The notes under the pieces were generated by a model. The model worked only from the letters and a program-made list of their open reading frames with translations. It ran no database searches and was not told where the DNA came from. DNA of 64,000 nt. It comes from Candidatus Marinacidobacterales bacterium (GTDB lineage: Bacteria; Acidobacteriota; Vicinamibacteria; Marinacidobacterales; SMYC01). This document shows positions 50,030 to 58,239 of the stretch, piece by piece; positions within the stretch are counted from its first letter, which is position 1; every line of letters starts with the position of its first letter. The position numbers and the translations under genes were made by a program. The stretch spans positions 6,592,001 to 6,656,000 of the forward strand of contig OZ250169.1 in assembly GCA_965237955.1 (NCBI GenBank), in the 5' to 3' direction.

Positions 50030-50993
50030 ATGAGCCGTGTCGCACTCTATCTCCAGGACGCGCATCCTCTCGAGGATTGCATTCGCTTCGCGAGCTACGC
50101 CGAGGAAAAAGGATTCGAAGCCGTGTGGCAGGCGGAGAGCCGCCTCGTCCGGGACGCTATCGTTCCCATGGCCGCCTACGCGGCTGTCACGTCACGTATC
50201 AAAATCGGCTCGGGTGTCATCAATAACTGGACGCGCAATATCGGGCTTCTGGCCGCGACGTATTTGACCCTCGACGACCTCGCCCCCGACCGCATCTTGT
50301 GCGGCATCGGTGCGTGGTGGGATCCGCTCGCAAAAAACGTCGGCATCGACCGCCGGAAGCCATTGCTCGCAATGAAGGAGACCATCGAAGTCTTCCGCAA
50401 ACTGCTGCGGCTCGAGAACGTGACGTTCCACGGCGAGTTTCACCACGTGGACGGCATCGAGCTCGACGTCGTCCATGGCCGGCGCGAGCCTAGAAACGTT
50501 CCTGTGTTGATCGGTGCAACCGGAAACAAGATGCTCGAGCTCACCGGCGAGATCGCCGATGGCTGCTTACTGAACTACTGCGTCCCGCCGTCCTACAACG
50601 ACCGCGCGATGGAGCTCCTGACGGCGGGCGCCAAGAAAGCGGGCCGCAGCATCGATGACATCGACCGCCCGCAGCTCATCGTCTGTTCCGTCGACCACGA
50701 TCGCGCCCGCGCCATCGAAGGCGCCAAGGAGCTGATCACACAATACCTGGCGCAGCAACCTCACATCGCCAAAGCGTCCGGCGTCGACGACCAAAGAACA
50801 AATCCACGAAGCCATGCAATACGTCCCCGACGAGCTGATCCTGAACATCACCGCCACCGGAACCCCGGAAGAAGCGAAAGCCCGGGTCGAAGACTACAAG
50901 GCCAGAGGCTGCACCTGCCCTGTGCTTTACCCGTTGGGCGACGCAAAGCTGATGATCGACACCTTCGCCAACCGAGGCACAGCCGATGGCTGA
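50030..50993 (+). CDS. LLM-class flavin/F420-dependent oxidoreductase with an internal deletion/frameshift near 50790
   Basis: [31 protein letters not shown]; C-terminus [16 protein letters not shown]...GCTCPVLYP is in a shifted frame. Confidence 0.8.
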
Positions 50994-51009
50994 CGGCCGA
51001 TGGCCGACG
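50982..51009 (+). repeat. Heptamer tandem array GCYGAYG x4
   Basis: gccgatg gctgacg gccgatg gccgacg; supplies the LLM stop codon. Confidence 0.85.
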
Positions 51010-51022
51010 GCGGAATCCCCGA

Positions 51023-52492
51023 CTATCTAATCATCGCCCTACCGGACTCCCCAGAGTAGTTAATGAACACCGTCTTCAGCTCGGTAAAGAAATTCAAACC
51101 CTCTTCCGACATCTCACGCTCGCCCACTCCGGTCGACTTCATCCCGCCGAACGGAAGCTGCGCTTCGCCGCCAATGGTCGGCTCGTTGACGTGCACCATC
51201 CCCGTTTCCACTTCAGCGATGAACCGCATCACGTGGTTCACGTCCTGAGTGAAAATCGATGTCGTCAGTCCGAACTCCACCGAGTTCGCCATCCGTAAGG
51301 CCTCGTCGATATCGTTTGCGCTCGCCACCGATAGCACCGGCCCAAACACCTCTTCTCGGAAGATACGCATCTCCGGACGCACGCCGTCGAAGATCGTCGG
51401 CTCGACGAAAAATCCGTTTTCGAGTCCCTTCGGCCTACCGCCTCCGCTGATGAGCCGTGCGCCTTCCTTCTTCGCGATCTCGATGTAGTCGAGATCCGTC
51501 TTGAACTGGCTCTCGTCCACGGCGGGCCCAATGTCGACGCTCTCGTCGGCACCGGGGCCGACTTTCATCTTCTTGGTGAGCTCGGTAATGCGCTCGACGA
51601 GCTCTTCCTTCGTCGACTCGAGCGCGATGACACGCGACGTCGCGGTACAACGCTGCCCGGTCGAGCCGAACGCGCCATCTCGGATCGCCACCGCCGCCTT
51701 CTCGAGATCCGCATCGGGCATCACGACCACGGCGTTTTTTCCACCCATCTCGCACGTGACTTTCGCGCCGCGCGACGCCGCTTTGACGTACAAGTCGCCC
51801 CCCACGCTATTCGAGCCCGTAAAGGAAATGATCGGGATATGGGTTGAATTCACGATCGCCTCGCCGACGGTCGAGCCCGGTCCGACCACGACATTGAAAA
51901 CGCCGGGCGGAAGCCCCGCTTCTTCGTAAATCTCCGCGAGAACGGCGGCGGTCGCCGGGGTCAACGCGGCCGGTTTGAACACGACCGCGTTCCCTGCCAC
52001 GAGCGCGGGCGCGGACTTCCACACCGGGATGGCCCAGGGGAAGTTCCACGGCGAGATGAGCCCGACGACGCCCACCGGTTGACGGATGGTGTAAGTGAAG
52101 GTGTCCCGGATCTCCGAGGGGAGCGTCTTGCCGCCCATACGGAAACCGGCGCCGGCGTAGTACTCGATGAGGGAGATGCCCTTCGCGACCTCGCCGCGAG
52201 CTTCACGGAAGATCTTGCCTTCTTCACGCGTCATCAACCGCGCGATCTCGTCCGCGCGTCCGCGCGCGATCTCCGCCGCCCGCCACAGCACACGACCCCG
52301 TTTAGGTCCAGGCGTCTTCTTCCACGCCGGAAACGCCTGACGGGCCGCCTCGATCGCACGCTCCGCGTCGATGGCCGTTGCCATTGGAAATTCGGCGATC
52401 ACGTCGTTCGTGTTCGCCGGGTTCACGTTGGTGATGAGCCGGTCCGATTCCGGCTGAAACCATTTCCCATCGATATAAGAACCGGTGTGCAT
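51023..52492 (-). CDS. NAD(P)-dependent aldehyde dehydrogenase
   Basis: SPWNFP, FTGS, EMGGKN, GQRCTA, EEVFGP, PFGGMK; GGAGG RBS before ATG 52492. Confidence 0.95.
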
Positions 52493-57127: not shown

Positions 57128-57199
57128 AGCGCAAAGTTCCGGTTTTCTTCTACGGCTCGTTCATCCTGGTACGCGGATCACATACGCGGCTTCGTCTGA
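57124..57199 (+). pseudogene. Hollowed gamma-glutamylcyclotransferase-like remnant
   Basis: MKRKVPVFFYGSFI joined to WYADHIRGFV*. Confidence 0.5.
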
Positions 57200-57212
57200 T
57201 ACGATCTCCCCC

Positions 57213-57422
57213 ATGGTCAAGATTTACGGCAAAGCTGGATGACCCTACACCGCCCAGGCCCGTGAGGCCTATGCGGACCAAGAAGTCGAGTATTTCGATG
57301 TGAAGGCCGACCCTGCACGCATGGAAGAAATGCTCTCGGTGAGCGGCGGCGAAAGAGCCGTACCCGTCATCGTCGACGGCGACAACGTTACCGTCGGCCA
57401 CGGCGGGACGTGAGCCGTTTGA
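57213..57422 (+). CDS. UXX-star family glutaredoxin-like selenoprotein with two Sec (UGA at 57240-42 and 57411-13)
   Basis: MVKIYGKAG-U-PYTAQARE...YFDVK...RAVPVIVDGDNVTVGHGGT-U-AV*; Grx fold with the cis-Pro VP motif; a hairpin follows each UGA. Confidence 0.85.
57250..57276 (+). promoter_or_regulatory. Candidate SECIS for the first UGA
   Basis: CCGC..AGGCC-CGTGA-GGCCT..GCGG; upper stem starts 13 nt after the UGA; GU in the loop. Confidence 0.6.
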
Positions 57423-57423
57423 C

Positions 57424-57440
57424 GCTGGCAGTTCGCCAGC
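57424..57440 (+). promoter_or_regulatory. Candidate SECIS for the C-terminal UGA (lies in the 3' UTR)
   Basis: GCTGGC-AGTTC-GCCAGC, 10 nt after the UGA; GU-containing loop; no U-tract. Confidence 0.7.
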
Positions 57441-57456
57441 CCAACCTCTCTTACCG

Positions 57457-58239
57457 ATGACCCGTCCGGAGTGGAAACACGTCATCGGCATCATCGGTGG
57501 CCTCGGCCCGCACGCGCACGTCGAGTTCGAAGTCTTGCTCCTGTTTGCGACCGAGAAAGCGCTCGGACGCCCGCCTCTCGACCAGGACTACCCGCCATGG
57601 GTGTTGTCGTCGATACCGACGACACCCGATCGAACCGGTGCATTGCTCGTGAACAGTGAGTCTCCGGTCGAAGCCCTCGTCCGAAGTGCGGAGCGTTTGA
57701 GCGAAGCGGACTTCGGCGTCATCCCGTGCAACACGGCGCATGCGTTTTTGGATGACGTTCGAGAGCGCGTCGCTCTCCCGTTTCTCGATATGGTCCGCGT
57801 CACCGCCGAGCAAGCGGTAAGCGACGTCGGCCGGCAAGGAACCATCGGTATCCTCGCAGCATCGGGCACGCTGCAATCCGGCCTGTACTCGAAATGGATC
57901 GGCAAGCTCGCGCCCGATGCGCGTGTGATCTCACCCCTCGACCTCGACAACGGAGACGAGCTGCAGGAACGTCTCGTCATGGAGCCGATCTACGGCCCGC
58001 GGGGCATCAAAGCCGGCGCTTTTCGAGATCCGGCGCGTCGAGACGAGCTAGCCGAGCCAATGAGGGAGGCCACCCTCAAATTGGCCGAGGCGGGCGCCGA
58101 GGTCGTGTTGACGGCGTGCACCGAGATACCGCTCGTCCTCGGCCGCGACGGTGTCGATGCTATCCCGCTCATCGACCCGATGGCGGTGGCTGCCGAACGT
58201 GCCATCGACGTTGCCCTCGGACGCGACGCGCTCCCTTAG
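57457..58239 (+). CDS. Aspartate/glutamate racemase family protein
   Basis: IGIIGGLGP, PDRT, IPCNTAH, ACTEIPL (two catalytic Cys). Confidence 0.92.
   Translation: MTRPEWKHVIGIIGGLGPHAHVEFEVLLLFATEKALGRPPLDQDYPPWVLSSIPTTPDRTGALLVNSESPVEALVRSAERLSEADFGVIPCNTAHAFLDDVRERVALPFLDMVRVTAEQAVSDVGRQGTIGILAASGTLQSGLYSKWIGKLAPDARVISPLDLDNGDELQERLVMEPIYGPRGIKAGAFRDPARRDELAEPMREATLKLAEAGAEVVLTACTEIPLVLGRDGVDAIPLIDPMAVAAERAIDVALGRDALP

Follow-up and report, generated by a model that had tools for sequence, protein, structure and literature searches.

An unlisted gene of 69 codons in the window, that is, in the whole 64,000-nt stretch of contig OZ250169.1 (GCA_965237955.1; Candidatus Marinacidobacterales bacterium) that was examined and whose coordinates are used throughout, encodes a glutaredoxin-like protein of UXX-star selenoprotein family 1, and its two in-frame UGA codons are very likely decoded as selenocysteine (Sec). 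We propose, with a probability of about 60%, that the product may work as a self-contained diselenide oxidoreductase whose tail would fold onto its own active site. This reading is favoured because of the modelled docking of the tail, an invariant lysine (Lys7) and the scarcity of glutathione synthetase genes. The features of the locus are collected in Table 1.

Table 1. Features of the UXX-star selenoprotein locus (window coordinates).
Feature	Position	Strand	Remarks
Remnant of gamma-glutamylcyclotransferase-like gene	57128..57199	+	Two ends joined, internal deletion of ~390 bases
Extended -10 promoter-like motif TG-n-TACGAT	57197..57205	+	7 nt before ATG
UXX-star selenoprotein family 1 gene, glutaredoxin fold, 69 aa	57213..57422	+	ATG at 57213
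TGA codon 10, Sec (very likely), active-site G-UPYT	57240..57242	+	TGA or Cys codon among 56 loci
SECIS-like hairpin 1, inside CDS	57250..57276	+	Fold; loop CGUGA, 18 nt past UGA-10
TGA codon 67, Sec (very likely), third residue from C-terminus (GGT-U-AV)	57411..57413	+	TGA in 56/56 loci
True stop codon TGA (codon 70)	57420..57422	+	TAG/TAA in some loci; too near hairpin 2
SECIS-like hairpin 2, wholly 3' UTR	57424..57440	+	Fold; loop AGUUC, 16 nt past UGA-67
Asp/Glu-type amino-acid racemase, downstream neighbour	57457..58239	+	TIGR00035 133.2 against cut-off 93.1

The gene, 210 bases in length, holds two Sec UGAs besides its UGA stop and is missing from the standard ORF listing, which holds frames of at least 80 aa. 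An earlier note on this DNA had pointed to a hidden ORF with two in-frame UGAs; the 69-aa frame was read and matched the NCBIfam model NF041114 (UXX-star selenoprotein family 1) over its full length (model positions 1-70 of 70, 110.6 bits against a cut-off of 72), confirming that the gene is real and upholding the note's assignment to the UXX-star proteins, here as the two-Sec UxxT form. UPYT at residues 10-13 and the second TGA at 67 were both present, and the third codon after site 2 was a stop in 56/56 loci, the ending here being U-A-V-stop. The score on NF041212, the Uxx-star parent or subfamily, also passed its cut-off (91.2 against 66), and Pfam Glutaredoxin matched the protein with an E value of 2.9e-09. 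Membership of UXX-star families 2 (NF041211, 56.4 against 100) and 3 (NF047338, 52.3 against 97) was ruled out by scores below both cut-offs, and the HUGP/GUXX-star fusion model (NF045501) was missed as well (54.8 against 325). A class I (dithiol) glutaredoxin was ruled out by the absent CxxC motif, UxxT standing in its place, together with a score of 35.8 against 90 on the ordinary glutaredoxin model TIGR02181. The gene occurs once in the source genome.

In the table of the 2026 review PMC13188914, NF041114 goes under the name 'Distant Grx-like protein 1', with the motif UxxT and 2 Sec; the two-Sec UxxT protein is thus the catalogued form of this family and the gene a further member of it. 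For related UXX-star families the same text cites Haft and Tolstoy 2025. In the literature search, whose scope stopped short of supplements and of Haft and Tolstoy 2025, family 1 was named in the text available of PMC13188914 alone, with no functional test or tail model. The name 'Distant Grx-like protein 1' was not found in the main text of PMC2398784 as far as it was available, and PMC13326102 and PMC12013277 gave no match to the family terms. A database search returned 3405 matches to the protein; the fusion search gave 23 longer proteins with no consistent partner domain, and the Rfam search of the locus gave no match.

Conservation of the two sites was analysed in 56 distinct intact loci, after dropping two duplicates (L029 and L033, of L007 and L008), one locus with an extra base at site 2 (L037) and one frameshifted gene (L038/L039). 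Site 1 was TGA in 48/56 loci and TGC or TGT in the other 8, and site 2 was TGA throughout. The best 120 of the 3405 database matches all ended at GG[TS], as expected for proteins cut at site 2; 118 of these 120 carried CPYT, and none had Cys at site 2. More distantly, 7 of 150 representatives ended in C-X-X at that site (the pattern flagged 9, of which 2 were false on inspection), and P0162, with a C-X-X end, scored 108 bits on NF041114. The alternation of Cys with Sec anticipated by the earlier note was thus seen at both sites, in 8/56 loci and in 7/150 representatives, respectively.

Database entries for close relatives begin past the first UGA and end at the second, leaving only the piece between the TGAs. 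Non-Cys residues such as Trp in homologues, which the earlier note had held to speak against Sec, were checked in one of the database proteins that show them: P0138 has Trp at both sites in the database, and in its matching contig each of these codons, like the stop, is TGA. Trp at the Sec sites was accordingly rejected as a code-4 gene-calling artefact in this one case traced to DNA. Public gene callers appear to read TGA as Trp in P0136-P0149 and others and in L074, which would produce false Trp-containing, extended proteins. As for the window itself, contigs of three other studies (X2, X6 and X11; X2 and X6 as single pieces across the region) span the gene with 0 indels and no listed change at the three TGAs, so the TGA codons are not assembly errors. 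Single-base frame errors were noted in L037 (genome G009), where the error lies at the second TGA, and in L038/L039 (genome G002), and may reflect assembly error or decay.

The machinery for Sec insertion, on whose presence the earlier note had made its claim depend, was found in the source genome, with selA, selB and selD at 543.9, 365.9 and 275 bits, each over its cut-off, and with tRNA-SeC(TCA) beside a normal tRNA-Trp(CCA). The gene was present in 18/18 genomes of its own family and 8/8 of a sister family, and in 0/14 of a third family, which does have selA. In a survey of the phylum, 59/401 genomes carried it over the cut-off. All 59 carriers were among the 300 selA-positive genomes and none among the 101 selA-negative ones, a cross-check of two lists that includes one unpublished genome (58/58 without it) and in which kin are not independent. 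In two genomes of one family (G365:C43 and G373:C102; loci L061 and L068), the UXX-star gene lies ~3-5 kb from selA.

A crude scan of genome G000 suggests a large selenoproteome, with candidates for example at C1:6965655, 3573144, 7475377, 7196740, 5654079, 2917453, 7826518, 6249354, 5975183, 5874459 and 2331049. By their motifs, we take these to include a formate dehydrogenase-like protein, two deiodinase-like proteins and several peroxiredoxin-like and DsbA-like proteins; a CGUG loop is common to several of them. At G000:C1:1295353-1295426, ARAGORN calls a tRNA-Cys whose anticodon, ACA, is unusual, and the call may be false.

In the text available of PMC13188914, a bacterial SECIS is described as a loop of 3-9 nt with G in one of the first two places on a stem of 4-16 bp, lying 16-37 nt from the UGA and folding at no more than -7.5 kcal/mol, and both hairpins at the locus fit this description. 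The upper stem of hairpin 1 (57256-57270) begins 13 nt after UGA-10, with the lower stem reaching out to 57250/57276; the hairpin folds at -15.5 kcal/mol, and 3/200 shuffles were equally good. The stem of hairpin 2 begins 10 nt after UGA-67 and folds at -11.2 kcal/mol, with 19/200 shuffles equally good, so that taken alone it is not striking. These positions agree with the earlier note, which had put a hairpin 10-13 nt after each recoded UGA. The geometry is also in line with its idea that spacing separates the Sec UGA from the stop UGA: the hairpin 2 loop lies 16 nt from UGA-67 and 7 nt from UGA-70, which falls outside the 16-37 nt range given in that text.

Comparison of the 56 loci provided further evidence for both hairpins. 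A crude SECIS rule, set after the family's hairpins had been seen, was passed by 52/56 loci at site 2, by 1/56 when counted from the stop codon, and by 153/1500 ordinary stop TGAs of the genome. The folding excess gave a mean z of -1.66 versus -0.24 in a downstream control window, where there was no excess, and compensatory changes were found in 2/4 consensus pairs of hairpin 2 among 15 hand-picked loci. The hairpin 1 codons GCC-CGT, which make up 3.4% of Ala-Arg pairs in the genome's long ORFs, were kept in 45/48 Sec genes versus 1/8 Cys genes, indicating from the codon comparison that they decay where Cys replaces Sec; the nominal p-value is too strong, because on a tree with weak resolution the 8 Cys genes group in some three or four places. 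Across relatives, hairpin 1 retains only a 2-bp core around its loop and shows weak covariation: 67.5% of cells were paired, 8-12/500 shuffles did equally well, and a slide by one column gave a higher score.

Recoding of the stop UGA as a third Sec was rejected, given TAG in 7/56 and TAA in 2/56 loci and the lack of conservation of the next residue. The stop is TGA in 47/56 loci versus 52% of the genome's long ORFs, which may be due to descent or GC bias. We infer a well-supported decoding scheme, in which SelB bound to each hairpin would direct Sec insertion at UGA-10 and UGA-67 and translation would end at UGA-70, where the loop, 7 nt away, would be too close to act. With one hairpin at 16 and 7 nt from two UGAs, the locus is a natural reporter that can test distance alone in recoding versus termination.

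The structure was modelled with AlphaFold using Cys in place of Sec and an alignment of 55 sequences, L017 being left out as it has no ATG start. The model is a glutaredoxin fold with a pLDDT of 97.3, remaining at 97 through the tail, and it contains two isolated two-residue bridges, at 49-50 and 67-68, whose pairing was deduced from the DSSP letters. When the last six residues were removed, the fold stayed complete (pLDDT 95.5) and the 49-50 bridge was gone, and for this reason 67-68 is taken to pair with 49-50. The U67-A68 tail is therefore predicted to pair with A49-V50 beside Pro51, and the model places the Sec-tipped tail back in the protein's own active-site groove, where it would stand in for glutathione; AlphaFold tends to dock tails in open grooves, and the docked tail is to be read with this caveat. 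Invariant in the 55 sequences were G6, K7, C/U10, T13, V50, P51, G62, G64, G65 and C/U67. As the UxxT motif has no second Cys, U67 is left as the one other chalcogen. Two residues follow Sec67 in the tail and one follows Cys in glutathione; the fixed tail length is not absolute, since some all-Cys relatives (e.g. P0198, P0241 and P0258) have longer tails. The model supports the intramolecular diselenide redox protein put forward in the earlier note, in which the Se-Se bond is a proposal.

According to the proposed mechanism, Sec10, located where helix 1 begins, would attack an oxidised thiol of a partner, such as a disulfide. Owing to the Gly-Gly hinge, U67-A68-V69 could then swing into the groove beside Val50-Pro51, the normal site of glutathione or a substrate peptide, and Sec67 would release the partner by forming a Sec10-Sec67 diselenide, which a cellular reductant would then re-reduce. 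The C-terminal carboxylate would be anchored by the invariant Lys7, a contact that would account for a Sec fixed near the C-terminus. As described in the portion available of PMC6295897, substrate peptides entering thioredoxin-fold enzymes are bound beside the active cysteine by the carbonyl that precedes the cis-Pro. In glutaredoxins, a conserved active-site Lys binds the glycyl carboxylate of glutathione, according to the available part of PMC11567954, and Lys7, three residues before Sec10, would be its equivalent. No GshB or GshF-like gene was found in the 98%-complete source genome, and a strong GshB match was obtained in only 2/27 related genomes carrying the gene; the UXX-star protein is presumably independent of glutathione. 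Going further, and at somewhat less than even odds, we tentatively suggest that family 1 consists of glutaredoxins carrying their own glutathione, in which a Lys7-anchored Sec tail would sit in the glutathione groove and cycle through a Sec10-Sec67 diselenide, in bacteria that make no glutathione.

The best placed of the alternatives, though an unlikely one, is that the groove is a metal site, with the two Sec residues as joint ligands of a soft metal or metalloid, namely Hg, As, Cu or an Fe-S cluster, making the protein a chelator or chaperone rather than a catalyst. The proximity of the two sites in the model agrees just as well with this role, and the text available of PMC13188914 names metal ligation as a possible function of Sec in the UXX-star family. 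However, no metal-resistance or Fe-S genes recurred among the 74 flanking ORFs scanned, and the gene, single-copy in the source genome and present in all genomes of the two families, is housekeeping-like. That the solved folds closest to the model (TM 0.74-0.79 over the query) belong to redox glutaredoxins and NrdH also speaks against metal binding.

Also unlikely, and ranked just behind metal binding, is a mobile tail that acts in trans, passing electrons, sulfur or selenium on from Sec10 to a second copy or a different protein. Animal thioredoxin reductase, with its C-terminal Sec arm, is the model for this reading, in which the fold-back would be a resting state. Stricter conservation of the C-terminal Sec (56/56 versus 48/56), the invariant Gly-Gly hinge and the existence of a fusion of the domain in NCBIfam (HUGP/GUXX-star) are in line with such an arm, but the docked tail was modelled with high, uniform confidence and no conserved partner gene was present in the scanned flanks. 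An ordinary glutaredoxin of the monothiol type, with a small thiol for its recycling and with the C-terminal Sec as a repair or regulatory site or often unread, is improbable. The fold is complete without the tail, and a resolving or repair role of the semi-conserved C-terminal GGC cysteine of glutaredoxins is discussed in the portion available of PMC11567954; against this, nearly all loci retain site 2 together with its hairpin, and the search for GshB and GshF-like genes found no glutathione synthetase in the genome. Hardly credible is the absence of any selenoprotein, with the TGAs as stops, Trp codons or assembly errors: although Trp stands at both sites in some database proteins and two related loci are broken, the one Trp form traced is TGA in DNA, tRNA-Trp(CCA) and tRNA-SeC(TCA) are both in the genome, TGA ends 2168/4158 of its long ORFs, contigs of other runs carry identical codons, and occurrence of the gene tracks selA.

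The start of the gene was analysed for expression signals. No Shine-Dalgarno-like motif was found upstream of the ATG. The pattern TG.TA...T, with varied letters, lay 5-9 nt before the start in 24/27 gene-carrying genomes of the order and in 4/30 phylum loci, where many others have a Shine-Dalgarno-like motif; its background was 23/20000 random ATGs and 72/4158 long ORFs. The extended -10 motif noticed in the earlier note is thus conserved in the order, and the leaderless mRNA start suggested there is likely, judged from this motif. A -35/-10 promoter scan, which requires a -35 box, returned nothing at the locus.

The gap between an SDR gene and the selenoprotein gene is occupied by the remnant gene, both ends of which align to an intact gamma-glutamylcyclotransferase-like gene located upstream in relatives (L007, L019, L025 and L026; Pfam GGACT on L019). 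Its deletion junction is present in contigs of other runs too. The TGA of the extended -10 motif doubles as the stop codon of the remnant, and the motif has been kept despite the deletion.

On the downstream side, the racemase scored 152.1 on the cysteate racemase model CuyB, below the cut-off of 190. The 34-nt gap after the stop, with no terminator-like site in it, makes the co-transcription proposed in the earlier note possible; the pairing was not found outside the gene's own family, where it occurs in 5 scanned loci in addition to the window. ThyX lies downstream in the 4 sister-family loci with a scanned same-strand ORF, and 0/25 scanned downstream ORFs from the 30 phylum loci were racemases. 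A functional link between selenoprotein and racemase was rejected in favour of local synteny, as the pairing is confined to the own family in the scanned loci. The single RNA run X17 gave a 201-base piece in the racemase and no contig on the selenoprotein gene, and is silent on expression. Among all 74 flanking ORFs scanned, no conserved neighbour pointed to a partner. Elsewhere in the window, the last third of the ORF at 50030-51298 (+) seems to lose sense and overlaps an aldehyde dehydrogenase on the other strand, possibly through a frameshift; its start presumably belongs to a luciferase-type flavin oxidoreductase.

The discovery value of the gene is small, the family and its two-Sec form being catalogued. 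The locus calls for an annotation correction, as database entries of close relatives are cut off at both UGAs, and the diselenide oxidoreductase proposed here offers a concrete mechanism for a family that is widespread and for which the literature found reports no functional test. If true, it would provide a glutaredoxin-type reductase for bacteria without glutathione synthesis.

In a comparison with known systems, no difference was found between the protein and UXX-star family 1 (NF041114), with which it shares the full-length match, UxxT, two Sec and a Sec third from the C-terminus. With NF041212, NF041211, NF047338 and NF045501 it has in common a glutaredoxin-like domain ending in (U/C)-X-X, and only the NF041212 cut-off was passed. 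The core fold is that of class I glutaredoxins and NrdH-redoxins (E. coli Grx3, 3GRX/1FOV; cGrx1, 7C10/7C12; Archaeoglobus Grx-1, 3IC4; NrdH, 1H75), which also share the active-site residue, the Val-Pro loop and, three positions ahead of the Cys, a basic residue (2KLX). In contrast to these proteins, to which it is 22-28% identical, the UXX-star protein lacks the second cysteine of CxxC, and a six-residue Sec tail replaces the C-terminal helix and the GG-x-D motif. GG-x-D is the usual glutathione motif of glutaredoxins. A precedent for a bacterial C-terminal Sec with a SECIS beyond the stop is SaoC, in which, according to the part available of Haft and Gwadz (bioRxiv 2022.07.06.499078), UGA-UAG is followed by a G-loop hairpin. 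SaoC is an unrelated protein, and in the account available its UAG stop directly follows the Sec, whereas the stop here is a UGA three codons on.
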